DNA of 62,351 nucleotides, the filler included, from Bdellovibrionota bacterium (GTDB taxonomy: Bacteria > Bdellovibrionota > Bdellovibrionia > Bdellovibrionales > JAEYZS01), in assembly GCA_963169515.1 (NCBI GenBank). It is 5 parts of 5 records of this genome, joined end to end, with 100 filler letters (N's around TTAATTAATTAA, not from the genome) between each part and the next. Parts side by side here need not be neighbours in the genome. Positions count along the whole stretch, not along the records: positions 42,370 to 52,506 come from CAUJEF010000047.1; 4 more parts are not named here. The stretch is one strand, 5' to 3'. Below, one piece after another: positions 1 to 58,722 of this stretch. The position numbers were made by a program, and so were the translations under genes. The notes beneath the pieces were generated by a model that saw only the letters and a list, made by a program, of their open reading frames with translations, was not told the DNA's origin and searched no databases. Each line of letters opens with the position of its first letter. Position 1 is the first letter of the stretch.

Positions 1-803
1 TCAGCCCACATCTCGCGGGCCGCCCGAAACTTTGCTATTTCTTCAAAAAAATTATTATGAACATTAAAAAAGAAGCTTAGGCGGGGGGCAAAATGATCAA
101 CAGGAAGACCTTTGTCAAGGGCCGCTTGCACATAAGCAACCCCGTTTGCCAAGGTAAAGGCGATTTCCTGTGCGGCGGTCGATCCGGCTTCTCGAATATG
201 ATAGCCTGAAATACTGATGGTGTTCCAGTGAGGTACATTTTGGCCACAGTACTCAAAAATATCGGTAATGATTTTAAGCGAAGCCTCTGGGGGATAAATG
301 TAAGTTCCTCGCGCAATATATTCTTTCAAGATGTCATTTTGAATTGTCCCATTAAGCCGTTCAATAGGGACATCCTGTTTTTTTGCAACGGCGATATAAA
401 AGGCCAACAGAATGCTTGCGGTCGCGTTTATCGTCATCGAAGTTGAAACTCTATCAAGGGGAATTCCATTAAACAGCAACTCCATATCCTCTAGCGAGCT
501 TATTGCAACTCCAACTTTTCCAACCTCGCCGAGCGCCATGGCATGATCAGAATCATAGCCCATTTGTGTAGGCAGATCAAAAGCGACGCTAAGGCCTGTT
601 TGACCGTTTTTTAACAAAGAGTGATAGCGCCTGTTGCTCTCTTTTGCAGAACCAAATCCGGCATATTGGCGCATAGTCCACATTCGTCCGCGATACATAG
701 ACTCATAAACACCCCGAGTAAAGGGGAACTGTCCGGGAGGCGGATGCCCGTAGAAAGGTTTTATTTCTATGCCACTTGAAGTGGTGAAGTTTTTTTTACT
801 CAT
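1..803 (-). CDS. Methylmalonyl-CoA mutase, N-terminal substrate-binding subunit (runs off window start)
   Basis: Not in ORF track; manual translation from ATG at 803 gives [11 protein letters not shown]...[29 protein letters not shown]...[17 protein letters not shown]...[11 protein letters not shown]...[14 protein letters not shown] overlap with upstream gene. Confidence 0.95.
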
Positions 804-8478: not shown

Positions 8479-9761
8479 AACAGAGTCTCCGGGGGCGGTG
8501 GGGTTGTCGTAATTTTAATAGAATTTAAAAGACGCTCTTTTGCCTCTGAGAAATTTTTTGTCTCATGGCTGTAAAGTGTCCAAAGAGGCTCGCCCTTTTC
8601 AATCGGGTCGCCAACTTTCTTGTGAACTTTAAATCCCGCAACGGGATTTACGACGTCAGTCGAGCGCCGCCTGCCAGCGCCAAGAACTACGTTTGCATTG
8701 CCCGCTTCTTTTGTATTTATTGCGGAAACATAGCCAGACGCAGGGCTGAGTACGTCTTGTGACTGTGGGGGAATAGGAAGATTTTTTATTTGGCCACCTT
8801 GGGCAAAAACCATTTCTTGGAACTTTTCATGGGCGGCGCCACTTTCGAGCATATTCGCCGCAAGCATTTTCCCCTCGGCAAATGTCTTTGTTCGATTGAC
8901 ATTAACGTACATTTCAGAGGCGAGTTCAAAGGTTAAATCAATTGTGTCCGAGTAGTCCTGGTGATTTTCATTTCTTAGAATTTCAAGACACTCTTGAATT
9001 TCAACAGAGTTGCCAGCATAACGACCTAAGGGTTGGTTCATGTTCGTTATTAAGGCCGTAACCTTTTTGTCAAACCGCCGCCCTACCAAAATTAATAACG
9101 AGGCAAGATCTTCTGCAAGATCAGTCGTTCCCATAAAGGCGCCACTACCGTATTTAATGTCCAAAACCAATGCTCCCATGCCCTCAGCAATTTTTTTTGA
9201 CATAATACTGGCACAGATAAGCGGGATGGAATCGATGGTGCCTGTCACATCGCGAAGGGCGTACATTTTTTTGTCCGCCGGACACAAATCACCTGTTTGG
9301 CCAATAATACAGAGCTTATTTTTTTTCACGACAGATTTAAATTCTTCCAAAGGAAGCTCGGCATTGAAGCCAGGGATACTTTCGAGTTTATCAACGGTGC
9401 CGCCAGTGTGGCCCAAACTTCGGCCAGCCATCATGGGGACACCGATGCCCGCGGCGGCAACAATCGGCCCTACGAGCAAGCTGGTTTTATCCCCAACGCC
9501 ACCCGTAGAATGTTTATCCACGGTTGGGAACGGGAGATCAGAAAAATCAATCGTCTTTCCGGAGCGCACAATTTCTTTTGTCAAAAGATAGGCCTCTTCA
9601 GAGTCAAGGCCATTTAAAAGCGAGGCCATTAACCAGGAGGCCATTTGATAGTCAGGAATATTCCCGGCGGTATATTCACTAATTAGAAATTGTATTTCTT
9701 CAGGAGTGTGAGTTTTTTTTTGTTTTTTGTTCGAAATAATATCTGTAGCAAGAAAATGCAT
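8460..9761 (-). CDS. pdp: Pyrimidine-nucleoside/thymidine phosphorylase
   Basis: DKHSTGGVGDK, GRSLGHTGGTVDKLESIPG, SIMSKK. Confidence 0.93.
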   Translation of the reverse strand: MHFLATDIISNKKQKKTHTPEEIQFLISEYTAGNIPDYQMASWLMASLLNGLDSEEAYLLTKEIVRSGKTIDFSDLPFPTVDKHSTGGVGDKTSLLVGPIVAAAGIGVPMMAGRSLGHTGGTVDKLESIPGFNAELPLEEFKSVVKKNKLCIIGQTGDLCPADKKMYALRDVTGTIDSIPLICASIMSKKIAEGMGALVLDIKYGSGAFMGTTDLAEDLASLLILVGRRFDKKVTALITNMNQPLGRYAGNSVEIQECLEILRNENHQDYSDTIDLTFELASEMYVNVNRTKTFAEGKMLAANMLESGAAHEKFQEMVFAQGGQIKNLPIPPQSQDVLSPASGYVSAINTKEAGNANVVLGAGRRRSTDVVNPVAGFKVHKKVGDPIEKGEPLWTLYSHETKNFSEAKERLLNSIKITTTPPPPETLLWKRIH

Positions 9762-22204: not shown

Positions 22205-22304
22205 NNNNNNNNNNNNNNNNNNNNNNNNNNNNNNNNNNNNNNNNNNNNTTAATTAATTAANNNNNNNNNNNNNNNNNNNNNNNNNNNNNNNNNNNNNNNN
22301 NNNN
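22205..22304. other. Artificial contig linker
   Basis: N44-TTAATTAATTAA-N44. Confidence 0.98.
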
Positions 22305-32670: not shown

Positions 32671-34299
32671 ATGAAGTTTAACAACAAGTTCCGACTTTTT
32701 AAATGGCTTCTTGCGATCTTGCTCAGCTTTTTTGCGATCATCGTTGTTCCGCTATTTATATACCATCGGTTTGTTTTAAAGCCTCAAAATCAAAAATGGA
32801 ATTTGCACCATTGTGAAAACGAATTGGTCAAAGCCTCTGGTCAGATTCGAACCTATCTCATGGATCAAGTCGATGCCGCAAAAAAAATCGTAGACGCTGG
32901 AGTCTCTTCTAATTTCCAAAATGGTCTCTCGCTTATGACCTATGAATACAATAACAATAAATGGAATGTTAAAAACATCATTATTCATCCTGATTTTTCA
33001 AAGCTCTACAAAATCAAAGTCGATGACATCCTAGATGCATACCGAAACCATGATCTACTTCATCCAGTTTCCCAGGAAATAAAACTCGAACATCGGACAA
33101 TTAAAGATTTTGATATGCTGAGCATTTACTTTGTCCATCGGAATCCACAACCCAAATTAGTTTTTATTCAAATGTTTCCGGAATTCCTTGAAAAAAGCTT
33201 AAAAACAGACCCCACTTGCAACTTGGCCCTCGTGGACAATGGCGGAAACACCATCGCAGGTTATATAGCTGACTCTACAGTAAAGGATTTTCTGCTTGAA
33301 TACCAATCCTACCGTCAAAATGCGACTAAAGCTGTTCAGAGTCTTCATGCCTCTGTCAATGAAACAGAAATTTTTCTCTACAATTCGGTGTTGAAAAATC
33401 TTCTGTTGGTTTCTACAGTATCACCAGAAGTCCATCCCCTCTTCGCTCAATACCTGGATCTATTTAACCTTAATTCGATTTTAATATTAATTTTAATTGC
33501 TGGAACCTGCTTTCTCGCATTGCAGTTTGTGTCTGAAAAGATGTTTATATTCAAAGAAGCCATGCAAGAAATGTCGAATGGTGTTTTTAAACCCCATCCA
33601 ACGCAATCCGAAGATCCGCTTTTCAGCGAACTCTTTGAAGATCTTGCCAAATTTGCAAATCATTTCCTTTACAGGATACGTACAATTTCTAAATATCAAA
33701 AACTTCTAAAACTGAAAGACGCACAATTAAAACGCCAGTTCGAGACAGAGGAGGCTGTTACAAAAAAAGTCGTATCCTTACACCTGGAGCTAAAAAATCA
33801 AGAGGCGGTCACCTACGACTTTAAAATATTTCAAGACATAGCCGAGCTCAGCAGTCTTTGGGCAAATATAGGTGAACTTATCGAAGACAGCGGGGGCATA
33901 ATTGATACTCTAACTGGCGGCACAATTCGCGCCCTGTGGTTTTTAAAAACAGTGGAACCTCGGCAAATTGATATAATTGTAAAGCTTGCGCTTGAAATCC
34001 AAGACCTTGTTAATTCAATTAACAAACATCGATTTATCAATAACTCAAGCCCATACAAAATTCATATTGGACTACACCGGGGGGAAATGATTATGACGTC
34101 ACTCGGGCCGCTCGAGCGCAAGGAATTCACTCCCATCGGGGCAGATCTCGAAACTACAATCAAAATCTGCGGCGTTGCTAAAGCGACCTTGGCCCCCATC
34201 GTTCTCAGCCACAGTGTTTTTGAATATGTAAACAAAAACTACCTTTTCACAGTCCTAGATCAAACCATCGGCGACGAAAAGCTCTACAGCCTAAGGTAG
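32671..34299 (+). CDS. Membrane sensor with degenerate class III adenylate/guanylate cyclase domain
   Basis: 2 TM, periplasmic domain, HAMP-like linker, IHIGLHRGE..G..ER.EFTPIG; start chosen at ATG 32671. Confidence 0.75.
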   Translation: MKFNNKFRLFKWLLAILLSFFAIIVVPLFIYHRFVLKPQNQKWNLHHCENELVKASGQIRTYLMDQVDAAKKIVDAGVSSNFQNGLSLMTYEYNNNKWNVKNIIIHPDFSKLYKIKVDDILDAYRNHDLLHPVSQEIKLEHRTIKDFDMLSIYFVHRNPQPKLVFIQMFPEFLEKSLKTDPTCNLALVDNGGNTIAGYIADSTVKDFLLEYQSYRQNATKAVQSLHASVNETEIFLYNSVLKNLLLVSTVSPEVHPLFAQYLDLFNLNSILILILIAGTCFLALQFVSEKMFIFKEAMQEMSNGVFKPHPTQSEDPLFSELFEDLAKFANHFLYRIRTISKYQKLLKLKDAQLKRQFETEEAVTKKVVSLHLELKNQEAVTYDFKIFQDIAELSSLWANIGELIEDSGGIIDTLTGGTIRALWFLKTVEPRQIDIIVKLALEIQDLVNSINKHRFINNSSPYKIHIGLHRGEMIMTSLGPLERKEFTPIGADLETTIKICGVAKATLAPIVLSHSVFEYVNKNYLFTVLDQTIGDEKLYSLR

Positions 34300-35504: not shown

Positions 35505-36403
35505 TTTAAAGTGTTTTTATAAGCCATGGACCTTAGTTTTTCTAACTCTCCTAGGCTTATATAATACTTTTTCCCGCAGAAATCGCAACTGAGCATGAGA
35601 CTTTCGTTGGTCTCTTGAATCATGCTATCGATTTCTTGATGTCCCAGCAAGATAAGCGCACGTTTTGCCCGATCCGTAGAACATCGGCACTGATACTGAA
35701 TAAAAGAATTATGTTCCAGTTCAACCATTTTGAAATCAGATAAAAATTCATTCAAAATTTCGGTCGCAGAAAGCCCCAAAGCAAGCAATTCTGAAAGATG
35801 TTTAGCCGCAGCAACTTTCTTCTCTATTTTTTGAATTGTATCTTCTTGAGCTCCGGGCATTAGTTCGATCAAAACTCCACCGGCAGAGGCAACATAGCCC
35901 TTCGGATTCAAATCAACAGTCAATGCAACGACAGACGGGATTTGATGACTCTGGTACAGATAAAACGCTATATCATCCCCGACCTCACCCGTCTGAATAT
36001 CGACAAGACCACGATGAACACTATCTGAGTTATGCGAGGTTCGTACAATTTCCAAAACACCGTTTCCAACCGCGCCACGAATGTCCAGTTTGCTGTTTTT
36101 AAGGGGAAGATCAACCTTCGGGTTATGAGTAAATGCGCGAACCGCGCCCTCATAGTTTCCTTCTGCATAAAAGTTCCCTAGAGCGCCATTCCCCTTCACA
36201 TACATTCCCACGCTATCGCCAAGTTTCAAATGGCTCGCCATGAGGGCACACCCCAGCATAGACCGACCAAGAACAACCGTTGCCAATGGCCCCGCATCCA
36301 GGACCTTACGCATTTCTTCAATGACCTCGGTGCCATAAACAACAGACGCACGCAATTCGCCGTTGTTATCTAGAAAGCGATGAATCTTTTTTTTATCCGC
36401 CAT
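35501..36403 (-). CDS. hslO: Hsp33 redox-regulated chaperone
   Basis: GEVGDDIAFY..QS.Q.PS, AGG, CRCS...CDFC. Confidence 0.93.
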   Translation of the reverse strand: MADKKKIHRFLDNNGELRASVVYGTEVIEEMRKVLDAGPLATVVLGRSMLGCALMASHLKLGDSVGMYVKGNGALGNFYAEGNYEGAVRAFTHNPKVDLPLKNSKLDIRGAVGNGVLEIVRTSHNSDSVHRGLVDIQTGEVGDDIAFYLYQSHQIPSVVALTVDLNPKGYVASAGGVLIELMPGAQEDTIQKIEKKVAAAKHLSELLALGLSATEILNEFLSDFKMVELEHNSFIQYQCRCSTDRAKRALILLGHQEIDSMIQETNESLMLSCDFCGKKYYISLGELEKLRSMAYKNTLN

Positions 36404-42269: not shown

Positions 42270-42369
42270 NNNNNNNNNNNNNNNNNNNNNNNNNNNNNNN
42301 NNNNNNNNNNNNNTTAATTAATTAANNNNNNNNNNNNNNNNNNNNNNNNNNNNNNNNNNNNNNNNNNNN
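42270..42369. other. Artificial contig linker
   Basis: N44-TTAATTAATTAA-N44. Confidence 0.98.
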
Positions 42370-42510
42370 CCCTTGCGATACCAAAACATCGAATTCTCGA
42401 AGTTTCATGATCGCTTGTTCTGTCGTATATTTAACTCTGGACATATTTCGCCTCCCTTTTCCTTGTATCACAGCCTTATTGGGCTGGACTAGTTTTTGGG
42501 GGGCAGGTCA
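42370..42510 (-). mobile_element. IS3-family (IS407-like) element, left end and start of OrfA, cut by contig end
   Basis: Minus-strand terminus TGACCTGCCCCCCAAAAACTAGTCCAG; GGGAGG RBS; ATG 42444 encodes MSRVKYTTEQAIMKLREFDVLVSQG. Confidence 0.85.
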
Positions 42511-42511
42511 G

Positions 42512-42607
42512 TTGGCCTTCGCAATCACCCCTGATTACCTCCGTGACTACTCTCCCCCGACATACGGTGGAAAGTAGTCACGGAGACGGGGTGAAAGCTA
42601 CGGCCAA
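42512..42607. repeat. Long imperfect inverted repeat (extended hairpin)
   Basis: TTGGCC..TCACCCC..CTCCGTGACTAC...GTAGTCACGGAG..GGGGTGA..GGCCAA. Confidence 0.85.
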
Positions 42608-42706
42608 AAAGATAAAAGATCGGAGGAATATCAAATGAAGTAGTTAGTTGAAGGATAGGAAAAGTCGGAGGGGAAAAGAATAAAAATTTTAAACGGAGCA
42701 ATAGAA

Positions 42707-42847
42707 ATGGATATTGAAATCAATCCTATTGCGATCCAGCTAAAACACTATAATCAAAATATCGCAAATTTAATTGAACACCTGCTGACGCTTGACCAAG
42801 AAATGTTCGGAGCCGATAAGGACCATGATCCGAAGGGGGCCGCATGA
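42707..42847 (+). CDS. 46-aa ORF translationally coupled to the recombinase
   Basis: GGAG RBS; MDIEINPIAIQLKHYNQNIANLIEHLLTLDQEMFGADKDHDPKGAA; ATGA overlap at 42844-42847. Confidence 0.6.
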   Translation: MDIEINPIAIQLKHYNQNIANLIEHLLTLDQEMFGADKDHDPKGAA

Positions 42848-44535
42848 AGAAAATTGCCTTATACATTCGCGTATCGACTGAAGAGCAAGCCAGAGTTCAA
42901 GATGGTTCGCTTGTTTCACAGCGAAAGCGCTTAGAAGAATATGTCGACGGACAAAACCGCCGGGACCACGGGTGGGGCCAGATCGTCGATGTTTATGTTG
43001 ACGAGGGGCGGTCTGCCAAAGACATGAATCGCCCTGAGTTCCAAAGACTCCTAAGCGACGTTCGCACAGGCAAGATCAATTTGATTCTTTCAACTGAGCT
43101 TTCTCGTATGTCGCGTTCGATCCGTGATTTTTGTGACATCTGGGATTTATTTAAAAAACATAACGCTAACTTCATCACGCTCCGTGAGCAGTTTGATACG
43201 ACCAGTGCCGCTGGAGAGATGATGGTCTTTAACCTTATCAACTTTGCGCAGTTTGAGCGCAAGCAAACGGGTGAAAGAATTGCTGCCAATTTCAAGTCGC
43301 GTGCCGAGCGAGGGCTTTGGAATGGTGGGCAAATCCCGCTTGGGTACAAGCGGGATTCTAGTCATGCAGGGCGCTTGGCCGTTCACCAGAGAGAATCAAA
43401 AATAGTAAAACTCATTTTTAAGCAGTTCTTGAAGACAAGGAATTTGCGAGACACCTGCATCAAGCTTAGTGAACAGGGTTTTAGGACAAAGAAATACACC
43501 AACTCCAAAGGTAAGGAAGTTGGTGGCAACTATTTCACTGTTCAAAGCCTTCATCATCTTTTAACCAATGCCACTTTTGTCGGGCAACGTGAGATCAATA
43601 AAAAGCGGGGCGACTTGAGACTTGTAAAAGCCTCTTGGCCTGGGATCATCACAAAGTCTGAGTTCGACAGTGTTCAAAAGCAGCTTCTTAAAAACAAGCG
43701 CCGCTTTAAACCTGATGACTGGAAAACATATTCTTACCCACTAACGGGCCTCGCCGTATGTGGCGAGTGCGGCAAAACCCTTAACGGCAAGTCTGCTCAC
43801 GGTAAAACGCAAAAGCATCACTACTACGATCATCCACGCACATTGCGCGGTGATGGCCTTGGGCACACTCATAAGTGTCGCATTCAGCGATTGCGCGCGC
43901 CTAGAGTTGAAGAAATGGTGCTCACCCAACTTAAAACACTTCTATCTGATCCTGCTAAAATCAACGAAGCTGTGGCGATCTACCACAGGGCTAGAAGTAA
44001 AAATAAACCCATTGAGCTTCATGGCTTAAGAGTCGTAACTGATGAATTGAAATCTCTTGAAACAAAGCAGTCAAACCTCATCGCTCGAATTTCTGAGCTG
44101 CCTGCGAAAGTTTCAGCTGAACCTTTTTATAAACAGCTCTCGCTCGTTCAAGAGCAAATCAATGAGCGCGCACGCCTTAAAGAAAATCTACTGACCCAAT
44201 CAAGAGAAGCTGAAAATGCTAAAGTGTTACCTGCTAACATCACCCTTAGAATTCAGCGCACAGTTGAGGCGCTAGAAAAAGTTCCAGTCGCCAAACAACG
44301 TAGTATTTTCGAAAACCTGATCCAATTTGCTGAATTTCATCCGAATAAACTAAGACTTGGCGTCTATACAACTGCGGGGGCTGCGAAAAGCAGCTCTCGA
44401 TTTCAAACAATCGTGGGTTCGCATACTATCAAAGTTGGCGGAGAGGGTGGGATTCGAACCCACGTTACGCTTTCACGTAAACACGCGTTCCAGGCGTGCG
44501 CCATCAACCACTCGGCCACCTCTCCCCGGACATAG
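42844..44535 (+). CDS. Large serine recombinase (integrase); 3' end reads through tRNA-Ser antisense
   Basis: YIRVSTEEQ catalytic Ser, RPEFQRLL, LSRMSR, PLGY recombinase domain, CGECG Zn ribbon, coiled coil. Confidence 0.93.
   Translation: MKKIALYIRVSTEEQARVQDGSLVSQRKRLEEYVDGQNRRDHGWGQIVDVYVDEGRSAKDMNRPEFQRLLSDVRTGKINLILSTELSRMSRSIRDFCDIWDLFKKHNANFITLREQFDTTSAAGEMMVFNLINFAQFERKQTGERIAANFKSRAERGLWNGGQIPLGYKRDSSHAGRLAVHQRESKIVKLIFKQFLKTRNLRDTCIKLSEQGFRTKKYTNSKGKEVGGNYFTVQSLHHLLTNATFVGQREINKKRGDLRLVKASWPGIITKSEFDSVQKQLLKNKRRFKPDDWKTYSYPLTGLAVCGECGKTLNGKSAHGKTQKHHYYDHPRTLRGDGLGHTHKCRIQRLRAPRVEEMVLTQLKTLLSDPAKINEAVAIYHRARSKNKPIELHGLRVVTDELKSLETKQSNLIARISELPAKVSAEPFYKQLSLVQEQINERARLKENLLTQSREAENAKVLPANITLRIQRTVEALEKVPVAKQRSIFENLIQFAEFHPNKLRLGVYTTAGAAKSSSRFQTIVGSHTIKVGGEGGIRTHVTLSRKHAFQACAINHSATSPRT
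44412..44464. mobile_element. Putative hybrid att junction at tRNA 3' end
   Basis: CGTGGGTTCG (44412-21) and CGAACCCACG (44455-64) inverted, centred at 44438 in the CCA. Confidence 0.65.
44436..44525 (-). tRNA. tRNA-Ser(GGA)
   Basis: GGAGAGGTGGCCGAGTGG...CACGC-CTGGAAC-GCGTG, long variable arm, GTTCGAATCC, CCTCTCCGCCA. Confidence 0.97.
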
Positions 44536-44633
44536 AGCGCAAATAATTTTCAATAGTTATAGTGCAATTGATTGACTATTGGAATTAAAAAATGGACAGG
44601 CGGAGAACAAAATATCAGAGCCCATGCTTTCGA

Positions 44634-45392
44634 TTACTGTTTTTTTAAGAGCCGTCTAAGAAGAAAATAGTAATTATGAGGCATGAGCTCTCCGTACGAG
44701 GAATTACACATTAACGAATGCATTAGGCAGTCCATTTTTCCTGAAATGGTTTGATATTCATCCCCCAAACCGAGCATATGCCCAAGCTCGTGTGCAAAAG
44801 CGATAGAAGACCAATCCCTTCCCCAATTTGTATCATAAGGGCCGCGAGTTGAATCCAGTACGTTTACAGAATAGTGCGCTTCCGCCTTGTTTCTGACAAA
44901 CTCAAACTTAAAGCTGTAAGAAAAGTCTGTAGGGATACGGCGTAAGTTCCATAGATCTTCGGCCTGTTTGATTCGGTTGTTGAAATTCCACCAGTCCACC
45001 TCGGTTGCATTTTTGAGATGGATTTTAATCGAAAACACGCGGCGGCCGTCCTTCAACATTAAAATATCATGAATATACTTCCTGGGGAAAAAACCAGCAT
45101 AAGTAATCTTGCCTTCGATTCTAGTGATTGTAGAAAGATTTTGGTTCTTAATCATATCCGGGTGTGGAAAAGTTTTGTAAGAGTCTTTGGTATGCACTGA
45201 AAAACTTTTTTCGGCTCGAGAGGGATTTTCTTGCTGGTCCGCCACCGGCATAATTATTTCATATAACCAACGCAGATCTTCGGGGAATCGTTCTACAGAC
45301 TCGAATTCAGTTGATGAAGGTTGAGCATAATCTTCTACCAATGGTTCCGCTTGTACAAAAACAGTTAAAAATGCCAGAAGTAACAGCACCAA
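44634..45392 (-). CDS. Secreted zinc metalloprotease-like protein
   Basis: Signal peptide; AHELGHMLGLGDEY, SLM Met-turn; GGAGG before TTG. Confidence 0.8.
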   Translation of the reverse strand: MVLLLLAFLTVFVQAEPLVEDYAQPSSTEFESVERFPEDLRWLYEIIMPVADQQENPSRAEKSFSVHTKDSYKTFPHPDMIKNQNLSTITRIEGKITYAGFFPRKYIHDILMLKDGRRVFSIKIHLKNATEVDWWNFNNRIKQAEDLWNLRRIPTDFSYSFKFEFVRNKAEAHYSVNVLDSTRGPYDTNWGRDWSSIAFAHELGHMLGLGDEYQTISGKMDCLMHSLMCNSSYGELMPHNYYFLLRRLLKKQ

Positions 45393-45558
45393 TTGCCCTC
45401 CCCCAAGTGTAAACTGTATGGCGAGCTTTAATTAAAGGGCAAGGAGTAAGTGTTAATTAAAATTATCGAATACTTTTACAGTTGTTTAAAAAGAATTAAC
45501 CGCGTCTCAATGTGATGCGGTTTAAATGCTTTAAATCTATGAAATAACAAGTGAAATC

Positions 45559-45574
45559 TGGATCCCGGTTTGCA
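45559..45574 (+). promoter_or_regulatory. Putative sigma54 promoter
   Basis: TGGATCCCGGTTTGCA; implies the real start is 45587 or 45614, not 45551. Confidence 0.55.
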
Positions 45575-45586
45575 TATTTTAAAGCT

Positions 45587-46543
45587 ATGCATAAACCGAT
45601 TTATTTGAATATCATGGCCCTGCTCAGAAGATATGTTCCCAGGGGAGCTCTCGCGCTTTTATGCATTTCCGTCCTTGTAATCCCATTCCAAAATTGTTCG
45701 AATAAAGGACAATTGGACCTATCAGGCATCGGGAAGCAAGCGGTACCATCGGTTCCTGCCCCTGCGTACATCGATCCCGAATCTCCAGACGGTGCGACCC
45801 AACTCGGATACGATAATATCGTGCAAGATTCAGAACGAGGCTCTGTCTTTCAGGTTACGGGTGCTAGCACCATCATTTCGGATATGCGGATCAAAGTTGA
45901 TATGCAAACACACTATCGCTTGAGCGGTCGATTTAAGTCCATCGGCACAACTCCTTCGAAAATATATTTTGGTGTTACAACTTTCAGGTCGGACGGAGCC
46001 CACATCGAATCATGGGAGGGTACTCGAACCGGCTTTCCTGCTATGATCGACTCGGTTACGCCAACGACAATCAATACCAGAACAGACCTTATAGGTTGGT
46101 ACACGGGATCGGTTTCGTCATATTACAAAGCCATTGGATTTTACTTTAACGGCGATACGAATCGTCTCCCAGACTATGTTCTCACAAATTGGGGAACGGG
46201 TGCGATCGCGAATGAAGCCGGAGTATATAGTACGGCAACCGGTCGAGCGGTCATTTTGAATATTCCGGTCCCCGCTTCTGTTCAAGCGCAAATCACTCCA
46301 AACACACGAATATATAACCACTATGCCGGGGGTACTTACGTTTATACGGCGGCAGGAAATGACACGGTGAGCACGACATGGCAGGAATTTTCTGGATCTA
46401 TATCAGGATTTGATATGCAAAATTCGATTAATCGATTCCGGGTAGGTACGGACAACATTGGCTTTTTAATTCTGGCAAATTATTCACAAGATAATACCGC
46501 AATACTGCTGGTTGATGACCTGAGGTTTGAAGTTGTCCCATAA
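45587..46543 (+). CDS. FQNC-type lipoprotein with carbohydrate-binding/jelly-roll-like domain
   Basis: PFQNC; IKVD...YRLSGRFKS.G....IYFG; W.EFSG.I.G; VDDLRFE. Confidence 0.7.
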   Translation: MHKPIYLNIMALLRRYVPRGALALLCISVLVIPFQNCSNKGQLDLSGIGKQAVPSVPAPAYIDPESPDGATQLGYDNIVQDSERGSVFQVTGASTIISDMRIKVDMQTHYRLSGRFKSIGTTPSKIYFGVTTFRSDGAHIESWEGTRTGFPAMIDSVTPTTINTRTDLIGWYTGSVSSYYKAIGFYFNGDTNRLPDYVLTNWGTGAIANEAGVYSTATGRAVILNIPVPASVQAQITPNTRIYNHYAGGTYVYTAAGNDTVSTTWQEFSGSISGFDMQNSINRFRVGTDNIGFLILANYSQDNTAILLVDDLRFEVVP

Positions 46544-46550
46544 GGAGCTT

Positions 46551-47249
46551 ATGGTTTTATTTTCAATTATATTTGCGTCTATAAATTCAATGGCCAATCC
46601 GGCAATGGACATTGTCATGGCACATCCGACCAGGAATTCGATCACGTTTGATCAGACACTGATAGAGCTATTAGGGAAGCCTTATAACGAAGAGAAAGTA
46701 ATGTTATTAAAAAAATATGAGCTTCAGGGGGCACAGGAAAAAACAGGCGAACAGTACAGCAATATTCGAAATAAATATAATTCCATTGTTGTGGAAAGGG
46801 ACCCACAAGGCAATTTGCGAAACATTATTCATAACTTTCCAACCAAGGATGGATTACAAAGCGAAAATTTAAGTATTCCGAACAAAGCAGTGACTTACTG
46901 CGGTTTTAATCTTCAGGGGAGAGCCACGGGTTGTCTAACGCAGTCACAGTATGTGTGCGATATTATGAATTTAAGGAATCGAGACCAGTATATGTTGGAT
47001 CAGGTTTCGACAGCCCATCGGCAAGGAGTTTTAGCCATACAGAAATCACTTCCGGGCTTTTATCGAAGAAAACTCGGCAAACACCGTTATGCATTTTCTA
47101 AAATAAAAAATTCGCTTGATCCAAAAAACAAAGGCGCCTTGATGCAGGTGTGTGACACCAACATCGCATATATAAATCAAATTTTTACGGCGCAACCGAT
47201 GTCTACGCCTGCGGCAGCAGTAAATCCTGTTGTGGACGGAACAAAATAG
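46551..47249 (+). CDS. Hypothetical secreted protein
   Basis: TAAGGAG RBS before ATG 46551; signal peptide. Confidence 0.7.
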   Translation: MVLFSIIFASINSMANPAMDIVMAHPTRNSITFDQTLIELLGKPYNEEKVMLLKKYELQGAQEKTGEQYSNIRNKYNSIVVERDPQGNLRNIIHNFPTKDGLQSENLSIPNKAVTYCGFNLQGRATGCLTQSQYVCDIMNLRNRDQYMLDQVSTAHRQGVLAIQKSLPGFYRRKLGKHRYAFSKIKNSLDPKNKGALMQVCDTNIAYINQIFTAQPMSTPAAAVNPVVDGTK

Positions 47250-47320
47250 TAAAATCCAGGACGAAAGCACAGTTTTGTGCACGTAAGAAATGCGTTACCA
47301 TGAAGTAACTGGAGTACAGA

Positions 47321-48010
47321 ATGAAATCTTTAATAGTTGCCGTTGTGGTATTGGTCCCCTTGTCCTCGTATGCAATTTTTGGTTTTGGAGAAGACACGCT
47401 GTCAGAAAAGCGAGCAAAAGTTTGCACTCGGGCATTGAGTGAGCGGGGCAGAAGCATTGGGCGTGAAAAAATTAGCGAACTTAAAGCCGAGCATAAATAC
47501 ACATCTAATGGGAAAGAAATTGAAAGCGAAGGGTTTGCCACTATTGCTGTAAATGTAGCAAAAAATCTTCAACCAGGGAGATGCAAAACCTTTGAAATTA
47601 GAGGTTGGGACGTTGATTTGAACAGCGTTATGCAAAGCATCCCAGGAGAATTTACTAAAGATTCCGTCACAATGGATGATAACTGTGAAGCTCAGGCGAT
47701 CATAGCGTGCCTAAACATCCTTACACAAAATCGACTGAGCGCGGTTAAAAAAGAAAATAAAAATGCTACCATCGCGAGCGGCTTTGTGAAGGCCGAATCT
47801 CCAATTCAATATATGTATCCCAATATAAAGTTTAACCCCAATGCGGCCACACCGCCCATAGTAAAGGCTGATGGATCTAATTACACAAAGCTAAGCGAAC
47901 AATGCATATATGAATCCGATCCTGTAACAAGGCAGGCGGCCTGTGATGCAAGGGACAGGTTAAGATCAAGCTCAAAGCAGGCTGCGCCAAATACGGGCGG
48001 TCGTCGTTAG
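47321..48010 (+). CDS. Hypothetical secreted Cys-containing protein
   Basis: GGAG RBS; signal peptide SYA. Confidence 0.75.
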   Translation: MKSLIVAVVVLVPLSSYAIFGFGEDTLSEKRAKVCTRALSERGRSIGREKISELKAEHKYTSNGKEIESEGFATIAVNVAKNLQPGRCKTFEIRGWDVDLNSVMQSIPGEFTKDSVTMDDNCEAQAIIACLNILTQNRLSAVKKENKNATIASGFVKAESPIQYMYPNIKFNPNAATPPIVKADGSNYTKLSEQCIYESDPVTRQAACDARDRLRSSSKQAAPNTGGRR

Positions 48011-48052
48011 CCGTTGCTCGCCCCCCCGGACTATTGCTAATCTAGTGATTCC

Positions 48053-49042
48053 ATGATTCATGCCTCAGCTTTGTCCAAAACATTTCAAGTTCACAAAAAA
48101 TCGGCCGGATTTGCGGCATCATTCAAGTCCCTTTTCAGACGGGAATGGCTGAATAAACAGGCTTTGCAGAATGTGTCCATTGATGTTGAGCCTGGTGAGA
48201 TCGTTGGCCTTGTTGGCGCAAATGGCGCCGGCAAAACAACGCTCGTAAAAATTCTTGCTGGAATTATTCATCCCACGTCTGGCGAAGCAAGGGTTTTGGG
48301 TTATAAACCATTTGATCGACACAATGATTTTCGCAGACAAATTTCTTTGATTATGGGACAGAAGGCCCAGTTGTGGTGGGATTTGCCGGCTGAAGATTGT
48401 TTTTTACTTTTGCGGGAAATTTACCAAATTCCACACCCAGAATATAGACGAAGTCTGGATTATTTAATTGAAGCTATGGGGGTAAAAGATCAGCTGAACA
48501 TTCAAATTCGAAGGCTTTCCCTGGGCGAACGCATGAAAATGGAGCTGATTGCAGCGCTTTTGCACAAACCCCGCGTGGTTTTCTTGGACGAGCCCACAAT
48601 AGGTTTGGATTTAAGCGCGCAAATGGCGATTAGAAAATTTATTTCCGATTATAGAAAAGAAAATAAACCGGCAATGATTTTGACGTCCCACTATATGGAG
48701 GACATTGAGAAGCTCTGCAAGAGAATTGCAATCATCAAAGAGGGCCAGATTGTTTATGATGGGGGGCTATCAAAGGTAATCGATAAATATGCAACACAAA
48801 AAATTTTATCGGTCGCAATAGATGTCGAAGGCCAACCCATGCCATCTGAAAAAGACCTAAAGCTGGCTCATGTTCAGGGTGTTGCCATCGACGGTAATAT
48901 CGTAAAGCTAAACGTAGAGCGGAAAAATACAACGACAGTGGCAAGCAGTATTTTAAAAAATTTTAAGATCAAAGATCTCAGCATCGAAGAGGAAGAAATC
49001 GGAAATATAATCGAAGCTTTAATTCGCAAGGATAAAAAGTAA
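48053..49042 (+). CDS. ABC transporter ATP-binding protein
   Basis: GANGAGKTT, LSLGERMK, FLDEPTIGLD, TSH. Confidence 0.95.
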   Translation: MIHASALSKTFQVHKKSAGFAASFKSLFRREWLNKQALQNVSIDVEPGEIVGLVGANGAGKTTLVKILAGIIHPTSGEARVLGYKPFDRHNDFRRQISLIMGQKAQLWWDLPAEDCFLLLREIYQIPHPEYRRSLDYLIEAMGVKDQLNIQIRRLSLGERMKMELIAALLHKPRVVFLDEPTIGLDLSAQMAIRKFISDYRKENKPAMILTSHYMEDIEKLCKRIAIIKEGQIVYDGGLSKVIDKYATQKILSVAIDVEGQPMPSEKDLKLAHVQGVAIDGNIVKLNVERKNTTTVASSILKNFKIKDLSIEEEEIGNIIEALIRKDKK

Positions 49043-49845
49043 TGTCTTGGTTCCGGGCCATATATTCCATGGAGTTTCGGCGTATTTTTTCGTATCGCGT
49101 GGATTTTTGGATTTCATTCCTAGGATCTGTCGCAGGGGAAATCGCCGTTGCCTATTTTTTATGGGATGCTATTTACAAAAAAAACCAAGCCACTGAAATT
49201 GCCGGATATTCTTTTACAATGATGATCCTCTATTACGTTTTCGCAGCTTTTGGCGGCCGAATTATTCGCGGCAACGAGCGCATGATTGTTGCGACAGATA
49301 TATATGATGGTGGGCTTACAAAATACTTAATGTACCCCATTAGCTACGTTCTCGTAAATTTTGCACAAGCTTTGGCATACAACACGTTGACGCTTGTGCA
49401 GTTTGCATTGGGTATTGCGGCTATGTTTTTGTTATTTGGAAAGCCCGCCGAGCTTGACCTTGAAGTTTCTAATTTTATTATGGGAATTTCGACGTGCTTG
49501 GTGGCGTCTTGTTTTTATTTTGTTCTTTATGTGACCATAGATTACATCGCGTTTTGGGCGGATACCGTCTGGAGCTTAAGTGTGATGTATCGTTTTGTCG
49601 CACAGTTTTTAAGTGGAATTTACGTTCCTATTGAAATGTTTCCGGCATCATTTGTGAAGCTCGTTTATTTTACGCCGTTCCCATACATAGGCGCGGAACC
49701 AATAAAAATGTTTTTAGGCAGATCGTCCTGGCAACAATGGGTGCATGTGAACATCATGATTGTCCTTTGGATTGTTCCAGCGATGTTTGCCCTTCATATT
49801 GTTTGGAAGCGCGGACTTAAAACTTATACCGGTGTTGGAATATGA
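49042..49845 (+). CDS. ABC-2 family permease (DUF990-type)
   Basis: YR..F, DI..G.L..YL..P, six TM. Confidence 0.88.
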   Translation: MSWFRAIYSMEFRRIFSYRVDFWISFLGSVAGEIAVAYFLWDAIYKKNQATEIAGYSFTMMILYYVFAAFGGRIIRGNERMIVATDIYDGGLTKYLMYPISYVLVNFAQALAYNTLTLVQFALGIAAMFLLFGKPAELDLEVSNFIMGISTCLVASCFYFVLYVTIDYIAFWADTVWSLSVMYRFVAQFLSGIYVPIEMFPASFVKLVYFTPFPYIGAEPIKMFLGRSSWQQWVHVNIMIVLWIVPAMFALHIVWKRGLKTYTGVGI

Positions 49846-50630
49846 TTCGTTATATACGTCTTTATGCGAATTTTCTAAGATTTTCATTTAGTAAGGCATT
49901 CGAGTTTCGAATAGATTTTTATTTTCGTATTTTAATGGATATAATTTATTACGCCGTTAATATTTTGTTTTTCAAGGTCATATTCTTACATTCAAACATA
50001 CTTGCGGGATGGACCGAAGCTCAAGTGATGGTATTTGTCGGAGCGTTCATAGTGATTGACGCCTTAAACATGACAGTTTTTGCAAATAATTTTTGGGCTA
50101 TGCCGAGTCTTATCAACAAAGGGAATTTGGATTACTATTTGCTTCGTCCCGTTTCGACATTGTTTTTTATTTCTTTTCAAGATTTTGCGGCAAACTCGTT
50201 TGTAAATCTACTTATAGCCGGTGGAATCTTGGTCTGGACCATGATTCAGTATCCAGATCCGATTTCAATATTGAACCTTGTTTTGTTTTTATTTCTTATT
50301 TTAAACGGGACCCTTCTGTACGCTTTTGTTCGATTACTGTTTGTTTTGCCAGTATTTTGGACCCATTCCTCTCGAGGGTTAGATATGATGTTTTGGGGCT
50401 TTGCTCGTTTTATGGAACGGCCGCATCAAATATTTTACGGTGCAGTGAGAATTATTTTGCTTACGGTACTGCCTTTTGCACTCATGGCTTCGCTCCCAAC
50501 AGAGGTATTGTTCAGTAGCAGCCCGTGGCCAACTGTTGGGTATTGCGTGCTTTTATCCTGTGTATTTTTCATCTCGGTGCTTGGGCTGTGGCGGTTAGGA
50601 CTGCGGTCCTATTCATCGGCCTCTTCTTAA
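49842..50630 (+). CDS. ABC-2 family permease (DUF990-type)
   Basis: GNLDYYLLRP, GLRSYSSASS C-terminus. Confidence 0.88.
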   Translation: MIRYIRLYANFLRFSFSKAFEFRIDFYFRILMDIIYYAVNILFFKVIFLHSNILAGWTEAQVMVFVGAFIVIDALNMTVFANNFWAMPSLINKGNLDYYLLRPVSTLFFISFQDFAANSFVNLLIAGGILVWTMIQYPDPISILNLVLFLFLILNGTLLYAFVRLLFVLPVFWTHSSRGLDMMFWGFARFMERPHQIFYGAVRIILLTVLPFALMASLPTEVLFSSSPWPTVGYCVLLSCVFFISVLGLWRLGLRSYSSASS

Positions 50631-50742
50631 TAGAGATAATGCGTTTGCCCTGTATATTTTGTATTCACAGACTACAAAATTTTCGCCCCACCAACCAAAC
50701 TTTATAAACAGTTATGAGAACAGGCGGCGCTCCATTATAATT

Positions 50743-51339
50743 ATGAGCTTTGAGGGTAAATTGGGAATATTAGGAACTATTTTAGCAGTTTTGATGATAT
50801 CTTCGGATGCAACGGCTTATTATCACTCTCGTTGTGAGCAGTTTTTTTCAGAAAACCAATACATTACAACAGAGGATATTAAAAATGTGTTGCCTGAAAA
50901 AGCTTTGACTATTCAACTAGAAGACACGTTTTTTTACAACAATCGCGAAAAACTAGTTAATCATTACATTCGTTTTCCAACTGAAAAGTCACACCATGTT
51001 TTTTGGGGGCTCCTAACTTCAGAAGAAGAGATTTTGGACATCGTTACAAAAGGGATTGGTCCACTTTTTGAGTTAAACGGACATGATTTTAATCAAGAAA
51101 TTAAAGAAGCTGCTCTAAAATCTTTGTATATGGCGTCGACAGAGACCCAAGGTTTCAGCATTATTGTCGAGGTCAATCAGTTAAAATGCACGGGCTGTTT
51201 TATCAGAATGCGCGATGGTATGATGCGAGTCGACCGTCGAGTTCCCTTAAACGCGATCGAGAATATTTATATTTTAACTGGCGGGATACGCCCGGCGTAT
51301 GTGCCTATTGACTTAAGCGCATTTCGCGCAAGGCCTTAA
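50743..51339 (+). CDS. Hypothetical secreted protein
   Basis: Signal peptide from ATG 50743. Confidence 0.65.
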   Translation: MSFEGKLGILGTILAVLMISSDATAYYHSRCEQFFSENQYITTEDIKNVLPEKALTIQLEDTFFYNNREKLVNHYIRFPTEKSHHVFWGLLTSEEEILDIVTKGIGPLFELNGHDFNQEIKEAALKSLYMASTETQGFSIIVEVNQLKCTGCFIRMRDGMMRVDRRVPLNAIENIYILTGGIRPAYVPIDLSAFRARP

Positions 51340-51778
51340 AAAAACTTTTTAATAAAACAGCAGATTCGTTTTCTAATACTCCAGATTCAATGGTCGGTGT
51401 GTGGTTTAATTTTTTATCTTTAAAAATTTGATAAACAGATTCGATCGCGCCGGCCTTAGGGTCCTTTGCGCCATATACGACTCGGCCGACCCGAGCCTGT
51501 ATGATTGCCCCAACACAAAGTATACAGGGCTCAAGGGTCACATAGAGCGTGCAGTCGCTTAGCCGCCAATTGCTTTTTAATAGAGAGGCCTCTTGGATCG
51601 CTAGAATTTCGGCGTGTCCTATGGGGTTTTGGGTCGATTCTTTTAAATTAAATGCTTCCGCTACTACGACGTTGTTGCATGTAATGACTGCGCCGATGGG
51701 AACTTCGTTCAGTTTAGCGGCCTTGCGGGCGAGAGCAAGTGCTTGCCTCATAAAAATAGAGTCTAATTCATTAGTCAT
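51305..51778 (-). CDS. tadA: tRNA adenosine(34) deaminase
   Basis: EVPIGAV, HAE, TLEPC..C, DPKAGA. Confidence 0.92.
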   Translation of the reverse strand: MTNELDSIFMRQALALARKAAKLNEVPIGAVITCNNVVVAEAFNLKESTQNPIGHAEILAIQEASLLKSNWRLSDCTLYVTLEPCILCVGAIIQARVGRVVYGAKDPKAGAIESVYQIFKDKKLNHTPTIESGVLENESAVLLKSFFKALREMRLSQ

Positions 51779-51902
51779 TTAGGGGGAGTCCTATCAAAAA
51801 TTGACATAACGCACAAGTACTTGTTTGACTGGTATACGGGCAAACTATAAACCTTTGTATTCAGCCAATCATATACCATACGTAAAGGCAGGTGATTCCC
51901 AC

Positions 51903-52103
51903 GTGGCATTAGTTAAGTCTCGAGAAGGTGAAGGCTTTGAGCAGCTGCTAAAGCGCTTCAAAAAACAGTGCGAAAAATCAGGTGTTTTGTCGGAAATTAA
52001 AAAACGCGAACACTATGAAAAACCAAGCGTTCGTTTGAAAAAGAAGTCAATTGCTGCACGCAAAAGACTATTGAAAAAAACAAGAAGAGGCAGTTGGGAA
52101 TGA
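51903..52103 (+). CDS. rpsU: 30S ribosomal protein S21
   Basis: [18 protein letters not shown] start. Confidence 0.95.
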
Positions 52104-52506
52104 GCTTAAAAGATAAAATCATGGACGATATCAAAACGGCCATGAAGGAAAAAGATACCGCGAGATTGGAAACGCTTCGCTTTCTTCATTCTGCAATAAA
52201 GAACAAAGAAATTGAAATTCGTCCAAGCGCTGTAACTGATGCGGACGTCATACAAGTGATCGTCAAATCCGTGAAACAGCGTAAAGAATCCGTGGATCAA
52301 TACCAAAAGGCGAATCGGCAAGACTTGGCAGATAAAGAGACTTCTGAAATTAAAATTTTAGAAACCTATATGCCAAAGCAAATGACCGAAGAGGAAATTA
52401 AGTCCACGGTTTTATCTGCTATCAAAGCTCTGAACGCAACTTCAATGAAAGACATGGGGGCAGTAATGAAGGAAGTTACTGCCAAAACCCAAGGTCGCGC
52501 TGATGG
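52100..52506 (+). CDS. GatB/YqeY domain protein (truncated by contig end)
   Basis: MSLKDKI..D.K.AMK, KQR.ES, Y.P.Q, MKDMG.VM, GRADG. Confidence 0.92.
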
Positions 52507-52606
52507 NNNNNNNNNNNNNNNNNNNNNNNNNNNNNNNNNNNNNNNNNNNNTTAATTAATTAANNNNNNNNNNNNNNNNNNNNNNNNNNNNNNNNNNNNNN
52601 NNNNNN
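52507..52606. other. Artificial contig linker
   Basis: N44-TTAATTAATTAA-N44. Confidence 0.98.
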
Positions 52607-58622: not shown

Positions 58623-58722
58623 NNNNNNNNNNNNNNNNNNNNNNNNNNNNNNNNNNNNNNNNNNNNTTAATTAATTAANNNNNNNNNNNNNNNNNNNNNN
58701 NNNNNNNNNNNNNNNNNNNNNN
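58623..58722. other. Artificial contig linker
   Basis: N44-TTAATTAATTAA-N44. Confidence 0.98.

Follow-up and report, generated by a model that had tools for sequence, protein, structure and literature searches.

Genomic islands land at tRNA genes more often than anywhere else, and these sites have been held to be the province of tyrosine integrases, serine integrases not being known at tRNA genes in the Islander work (PMC4383910). The closest published precedent for the element reported here is DsiB at the Dehalococcoides tmRNA gene (ssrA). As described in the accessible part of the 2011 study (PMC3146451), DsiB is a CcrB-like serine recombinase of ~540 amino acids found at the 3' end of ssrA, and its gene always overlaps the att site at its own 3' end and, as the authors suggest, may be complete only in circular form or after a neighbouring island. 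Attachment-site geometry has been described for the A118/LI phage-type integrases; the accessible sections of Rutherford et al. 2013 (PMC3783163) place the zinc-ribbon-domain (ZD) motif at positions 16–24 in attP and 11–19 in attB, with the crossover base as 0, and describe a P-specific linker segment and a 2-bp centre. Additionally, the parts available to us of reports on streptococcal IMEs (PMC5357655), Mycobacterium prophages (PMC10654092) and IOD (PMC12884075), of tycheposon work, of TIGER/Islander 2025, of PMC9897764 and of the EDEN preprint contain no serine integrase at a tRNA gene, and the corresponding part of Durrant 2022 (PMC10083194) neither mentions tRNA nor contains such an integrase. 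In the literature covered, which lies mostly outside subscription papers, no reading of the T-loop as a ZD motif, no centre at tRNA positions 71–72 and no HTH tail was found.

The stretch of DNA analysed here (the window; 62,351 nucleotides, filler included) comes from a Bdellovibrionota bacterium (genome G000) and consists of five unrelated contigs, C44, C46, C47, C51 and C60, separated by N linkers at 22205–22304, 42270–42369, 52507–52606 and 58623–58722. The contigs are merely joined by these linkers, and the element, on contig C47 (CAUJEF010000047.1; window 42370–52506), has no neighbours among the genes to the left of 42370. The plus strand of C47 carries at 42844–44535 an ORF for a large serine recombinase (LSR) with the Pfam domains Resolvase (residues 5–158), Recombinase (183–284) and zinc ribbon (299–364). 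The features of LSR membership are present, namely these three domains, a catalytic serine and zinc ligands, and residues S11, C306, C309, H330 and C345 are invariant in 20 relatives. The ORF has 563 amino acids as integrated; ~530 codons are encoded by the element, and the remainder runs antisense through tRNA-Ser(GGA). Its closest relatives are found in Bdellovibrionota genomes, and its closest solved relative is the SPbeta integrase (E 4.5e-31). The best-scoring named profiles are SCCmec CcrB and CcrC (NCBIfam NF047343 and NF047347; 157 and 129 bits), but the equivalog cut-offs for CcrA/B/C are far from being reached (157/900, 129/900 and 67/700 bits) and the target differs. Judged from sequence, the place where this gene meets the tRNA gene is very likely the tRNA-proximal hybrid junction, made of a P arm and a B arm, of a small integrative element whose LSR recombines at tRNA positions 71–72.

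The target gene, tRNA-Ser(GGA), lies on the minus strand at 44436–44525 (ARAGORN; Rfam RF00005). It is intact, as had been proposed in a preliminary description of this DNA, and its cloverleaf is kept with the 3' trailer attached. That description had also noticed a 53-bp dyad about 44438, which is confirmed: 44412–44421 pair with 44455–44464 at 10/10 positions and then at 5/9 further in, and the 10-nt exact match to the tRNA 3' end occurs in 0 of ~3000 random 60-mers from the same contig. From the ARAGORN placement of the tRNA, the centre of the dyad falls on C74 of the CCA. In the core numbering used below, position 1 is the T of the plus-strand TGG encoding CCA (44436, tRNA A76), positions 4, 5 and 6 are tRNA positions 73, 72 and 71, and the T-loop motif CGAAC lies at 20–24.

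For comparison, a family sample of 194 sequences, window included, was examined, among which 48 have a tRNA or tmRNA gene (tDNA) facing the 3' end of the integrase gene. The removal of one duplicate and the addition of two loci with partial tRNAs gave a set of 49 junctions, all from L001–L097 or the window; the 96 distant LSR loci (L098–L193) have no adjacent tDNA in any case. Ample flank without a junction was found in L042, and junctions that are degenerate at most in L057, L059 and L062. The motif GTTCG stands at −18 to −14 exactly in 42/49 junctions and with at least 4/5 matches in 47/49, a fixed spacing which, as a matter of geometry, supports the earlier suggestion that the integrase reads the T-loop GGTTCG. 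The targets are ten kinds of tDNA: tmRNA and nine kinds of tRNA, namely Leu (five anticodons), Ser (three), Met, Pro, Arg, Val, Ala, His and Asp. Moreover, the arm had been expected not to pre-exist beside the tRNA, and it is present at 4/5 in only 1/17 scored tRNA-Ser(GGA) genes of relatives and exactly in none of the 17.

The other end of these elements reveals where attP is centred. Inverted copies of the P arm were sought upstream, without an assumed offset, and 16 far-end candidates with at least 5/6 of the core were obtained. Thirteen, including all those with 6/6, lie at +5 from the T-loop spacing, the other three having 5/6; the motif of the true partner arm is 5 bp further out than the tRNA T-loop in 13/13 full-core far ends. 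The far end of L016 came from a search assuming +5, and a profile of the tail protein discussed below led to four more, all at +5 (L002, L020, L034 and L038). Seventeen two-ended elements of 3.3–9.0 kb were compared further, without L038, in which the contig stops at the core. GTTCG at −18 to −14 and the partner motif at 25–29 place the attP centre between positions 5 and 6. Over 14 elements, the attP symmetry sum is 173 at centre 5.5 and 59–85 elsewhere, a comparison that is partly circular as the ends were picked by motif; this centre is the best in 13 elements and tied in the fourteenth. The pairs at attP positions 23–20 are complementary in 16–17 of the 17 elements, and the arms form a pseudo-palindrome of ~50 bp with ZD motifs in the 16–24 window. 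The earlier recognition of an LSR att junction is supported. Two stand-alone attP-like sites (L379 at 7430 in G365 and L380 at 7340 in G364) are near-perfect palindromes about a GC centre, with the core palindromic about the same centre and no integrase in 14–15 kb. An attP pattern was also tried as a phylum-wide family survey and rejected, with 71 match rows against ~43 for the reversed control in a hand count; single cases alone were used.

Core positions 1–6 are identical between the two ends in 17/17 elements, position 7 in 9/17 and position 0 in 11/17, so that both ends share six bases and the long duplication whose absence had been proposed is indeed missing. This identity brackets the crossover to positions 1–6, CCA included, the positions 71–72 and 73–76 being equally shared (17/17). 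Within this bracket, the attP symmetry points to the GG at 44440–44441 on the plus strand (tRNA positions 72 and 71) as the predicted central crossover dinucleotide. The preliminary description had placed the crossover at the CCA, the centre of the visible dyad, with the element arm as a mimic of the T-arm, and this placement is very unlikely to hold. The dyad is real and centred on C74, and the CCA is common to both ends in 17/17 elements; however, a dyad of odd length has no central dinucleotide and cannot arise from a 2-bp LSR overlap, and the far-end arm centres attP between 72 and 71. A centre at the CCA would make attP asymmetric by ~5–6 bp (symmetry sums of 67–81 against 173 at 71–72) and would not account for the sharing of positions 73, 72 and 71 in 17/17 elements but of position 70 in only 9/17. 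Furthermore, a tRNA-Val junction without CCA (L074) keeps the spacing unchanged. When a P arm is joined to a B arm with the ZD motif 5 bp apart, the apparent symmetry comes to lie 2.5 bp off the true centre, at C74; the CCA-centred symmetry would thus be a by-product of the known 5-bp attP/attB shift (PMC3783163). As for the empty site, 40 relatives match the tRNA alone and do not share the flank, a search of 6 family genomes with the flank on contig C96 yielded just two matches, both short and unrelated, and the contigs of four public runs contain no joint and no empty form, none of them spanning the junction by a 31-base rule.

With the crossover predicted at 71–72, the parts of the hybrid site can be assigned on the plus strand. 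The P arm (attP positions 24 to 1) covers 44416–44439, and its inverted partner is the far-end arm on contig C96, with which it forms 13/20 pairs at centre 5.5 and 1–7 at other centres. It includes the discriminator and CCA at 44436–44439, which from the position of the centre would be of element origin. Its ZD motif, GGTTCG, at 44416–44421 (attP positions 24–19) lies within the ZD window 16–24 of PMC3783163 and, by analogy, is presumably bound by that domain. An inner motif specific to attP (44425–44427, positions 15–13) is symmetric between P and P', with complementary pairs in 16, 14 and 16 of the 17 elements, and is absent from the tRNA arm; it is probably a contact of the RD–ZD linker. 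The B arm at 44442–44460 is made of tRNA-gene sequence, from the 3' strand of the acceptor stem through the T-stem to the T-loop, and its T-loop motif at 44455–44460 (attB positions 14–19) fits the attB window 11–19 of the same study. In the opposite attB arm, B', a ZD motif at attB spacing reaches 3/5 in 0/17 elements (best 2/5), some flanks being possibly decayed, and two of the 17 B' arms have the motif at attP spacing and are read as tandem junctions.

The mimicry of the T-arm and its proposed covariation with the target tRNA survive in part. In the shuffle comparisons, whose significance is overstated because the junctions are kin, an outer segment of the P arm (44409–44415, plus strand) tracks the variable loop and T-stem start of its own tRNA (4.61 of 8, against 3.27 for shuffled tRNAs) and has no counterpart in P' (2.43 against 2.34 shuffled). 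The inner 5/9 match of the dyad is no family feature, own tRNAs scoring 2.76 of 9 and shuffled partners 2.87 over the 49 junctions, and the ZD motif, being universal, matches own and shuffled tRNAs alike (4.27 and 4.25 of 5). The arm makes better sense as the P arm of attP, with the element's own far end as its symmetry partner. The outer tracking also bears on the idea that the inverted arm acts as RNA, by pairing of the trailer with the T-arm in pre-tRNA or as a hairpin of the integrase mRNA, or is the relic of an old inverted duplication, the recombination motifs being secondary. The outer P arm does track its own tRNA past the ZD window where P' does not, and the dyad can fold in the plus-strand transcript (−22 kcal/mol, z −3.1). 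Against this, the tracking, which lies outside the known ZD window, is mostly an amino-acid-class effect (4.33 when shuffled within the class; p 0.013, from related samples), attachment of the trailer leaves the cloverleaf intact in the window and in L009 but not in L013, and the same motif stands at the far end, kilobases from any tRNA. A role as RNA or a relic is therefore very unlikely.

A crossover in the T-loop with a repeat of ~20 bp, as for DsiB, would make the short core a decayed repeat. In the accessible part of PMC3146451, a 20-bp repeat does lead the authors to infer that insertion takes place mid-way in the ssrA T-loop, and the arms on contig C96 share 12 bases with the tRNA end. 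Nevertheless, such a crossover is highly improbable for this clade, since the shared run between the two ends is 6–15 bp, the identity stopping at position 6 in 8/17 elements and being down to 1/17 by position 15, and the motif at the far end shows no erosion but a displacement of exactly 5 bp. The ORF crosses the tDNA in 44/47 junctions with a called tDNA, the other three ORFs ending far upstream, and the motif occurs in three reading phases (39, 4 and 1 of the 44), which indicates a constraint kept at the DNA level. That the motif arose by chance, or is kept because it encodes Gly-Ser in the integrase tail, is scarcely credible: one phase does dominate, but the motif is kept in two others and at scars without an integrase, the encoded linker is modelled as disordered (pLDDT under 50), and no chance match was found in ~3000 random sequences.

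The position of attP has a consequence for the integrase gene itself. At the far end, the integrase frame stays open for 62–164 codons in 17/17 elements and in both copies on contig C96, against a background of 26% of 3479. The encoded tail is conserved and modelled as three helices with pLDDT 86–91 over residues 31–60, and the att-encoded linker falls under 50 at residues 346–390 of P0126. Matches of the tail to HTH families all lie under the Pfam cut-offs, and a Foldseek search gave no match at E 0.001 or better. Fusions of integrase and tail occur naturally, in 8 or 9 of 17 proteins, these fusions all lacking the N-terminal or an internal part, and unbroken integrase–tail frames are found in L378 and L071. 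The tail is found in none of the best 120 full-length homologues, as is expected of tRNA-proximal copies. In L002/L035 and L089, the P'-spaced arms have no conserved tail, and certain tandem junctions are without it. It would follow that attP lies inside the integrase gene, that on the free circle the enzyme is followed by a linker and an HTH-like tail of ~60–165 residues, and that integration shifts the tail to the far end, the shortened enzyme reading on antisense into the tRNA. A role of the tail in directionality or autoregulation is a guess. In myxophage Mx8, as Tojo et al. are said to have described in 1996, attP likewise lies within the integrase gene intP, so that integration alters the C-terminus; IntP is reportedly a tyrosine recombinase with an att geometry unrelated to that of the window LSR. 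As a separate observation, longer tails of 157–169 residues are seen in L097, L095, L378 and the phylum loci L359–L362, where the HTH-like part is followed by what appears by eye to be a second Recombinase-type segment.

Compared with the systems described so far, the window system has a canonical geometry and is unusual in its target, its one-armed attB and its self-splitting gene. With the A118/LI integrases, as far as the accessible text describes them, it shares the domain order, the pseudo-palindromic attP, the ZD motif at 16–24, the linker segment and the 5-bp attB shift. However, the A118/LI model in that text has the ZD motif in both attB arms and not in one only, and in the present family the target is a structural RNA gene that is restored by the element and attP lies inside an integrase gene with an HTH-like tail. 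The DsiB islands, likened here by description from the available part of that paper, are similar in their tDNA 3'-end target, tandem islands and an integrase gene whose 3' end overlaps att. They differ in having a 20-bp repeat with a cut in the T-loop instead of a six-base core with a predicted centre at 71–72, and in being targeted to tmRNA where the window family uses nine kinds of tRNA as well. They also carry a second small recombinase, DsiA, and a six-gene module, whereas a second resolvase-type gene is found in 2/17 two-ended relatives; the window's own element is split by the assembly, and its gene content is incomplete. A search for the DsiB locus gave 19 viral loci without tDNA or LSR with the motif of the paper and 0 with its primer. 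The known tRNA-gene islands (PMC4383910) are alike in target class, restoration of the gene by the element, tandem arrays and frequent target switching.

Contig C96 of the same genome carries two P' arms (at 33862 and 35943), one or the other of which is most likely the far end of the window's element; each shares 12 bases with the window tRNA end and forms 13/20 pairs at centre 5.5. A single full integrase of this kind and two copies of the tail are present in the genome. The arm at 33862 is preceded by a P-spaced motif and that at 35943 by a decayed integrase end, which indicates a tandem array; tandem junctions are also seen in L002, L008, L018 and L055. The cargo of the array is small, with antitoxin-like and SLT-like genes, and the assembly does not connect contig C96, at whose end lies an IS3-like repeat, with C47. 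A third, inverted copy of the P' motif is present in L194 at ~8871–8884 (C96:35870–35883), just before the decayed integrase end, and suggests a local inversion or deletion.

Retargeting to other tRNAs, which had been raised as a possibility, is supported by sequence comparison, as relatives occupy different tRNA genes. For instance, integrases 74–83% identical are found at Leu CAG, GAG and TAA, integrases 94% identical over 105 amino acids at Ser TGA and GGA, and integrases 72% identical at Leu CAA and Met with the 71–72 pair unchanged. Among five hand-picked pairs that cross amino acids, Leu/Met, Arg/Leu and tmRNA/Ala (twice) keep the 71–72 pair, and the Met/Pro pair (L026/L091) changes it. 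Along a tree of 55 rows, 17 changes were counted for the 71–72 pair (27.8 when shuffled), 21 for the amino acid (31.1) and 30 for positions 70–69 (35.7), counts that are suggestive only. In the FastTree tree, which carries SH-like support, rows adjacent to a tDNA are found in several branches, and many unlabelled rows are cut-off contigs; a single origin of the tDNA-adjacent integrases is not shown by it. In the window's own genome, 11/29 tDNAs have GG at 71–72 and 5 of these also have the element-supplied G73; these GG/G73 genes are predicted to be usable targets.

We propose that the ZD would read GGTTCG at 24–19 in each arm of attP and, in attB, the tRNA-gene T-loop at 19–14, with the canonical 5-bp shift, and that strand exchange would need a match at the 71–72 dinucleotide alone. 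The P arm would bring a new discriminator and CCA, by which the gene is restored without a long repeat. The other attB arm, whether it consists of host DNA past the tRNA or of a resident element's P arm, would be motif-less, so that the choice of target rests on the tRNA side alone; this would explain switching between tRNAs sharing the 71–72 pair as well as tandem stacking. A wider generalisation is possible, though we hold it tentatively: in a broad serine integrase lineage, the universal T-loop of tRNA and tmRNA may serve as a one-armed attB, with specificity residing almost wholly in 71–72 and in the discriminator and CCA brought by attP. A few base changes in attP might then redirect the enzyme with the tRNA unharmed, and the HTH tail encoded only on the circle might be a directionality or autoregulatory switch that integration removes.

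An integrase that reads the T-loop, with a six-base core and repair of the gene, would escape island finders based on repeats and could account for the tandem islands and scars seen at many tRNAs within a single genome (4/29 tDNAs here have the exact motif). If so, it would be a host-factor-free enzyme with a natural and non-disruptive site in almost any bacterium. Moreover, an att-library assay could draw on exact and inexpensive predictions from the centre, motif and tail as mapped here.

In genome G000, the arm motif is present with at least 4/5 matches at 5/29 tDNAs and exactly at four (Ser, Arg-CCT, Ala and Glu), and these genes are read as scars of the same integrase family. P-arm-like scars without an intact integrase are seen at tRNA-Arg(CCT) (C62:17849), tRNA-Ala(GGC) (C90:2365) and tRNA-Glu(TTC) (C169:7137), and a weak remnant of an integrase C-terminus (E 0.41) lies alongside the first. 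In the tRNA 3' flanks at four further places (C94:19450, C107:8962, C149:8141 and C125:4494), a P'-like motif runs directly into a P-like inner arm, which looks like the outcome of a deletion of an element between its own arms. Among viral sequences, the junction pattern occurs at 56 distinct loci with 1.7 kb upstream, of which 13 have an adjacent LSR, 3 an LSR elsewhere and 40 none; 42 further loci had too little flank. Many of these matches are scars or chance. The viral pattern without CCA has an LSR match at 2/60 distinct loci with enough flank, one of which (L397) is convincing but lies beside a tRNA fragment.

Two features lie upstream of the integrase gene. A promoter scan found nothing. 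An ORF of 46 amino acids (42707–42847, plus strand) has a stop overlapping the integrase start (ATGA), and similar coupled ORFs are present in 12/16 close relatives checked, window included. A Pfam search with this ORF gave no match, and its role as a candidate directionality factor or regulator is a guess. About 300 bp upstream of the integrase gene, a conserved hairpin (42539–42585, plus strand) has 13-bp arms and a z of −6.7 for 42500–42620. It matches no Rfam family at threshold and could be a regulatory RNA, an origin or a tail-binding site; similar hairpins precede 13 other close integrases.
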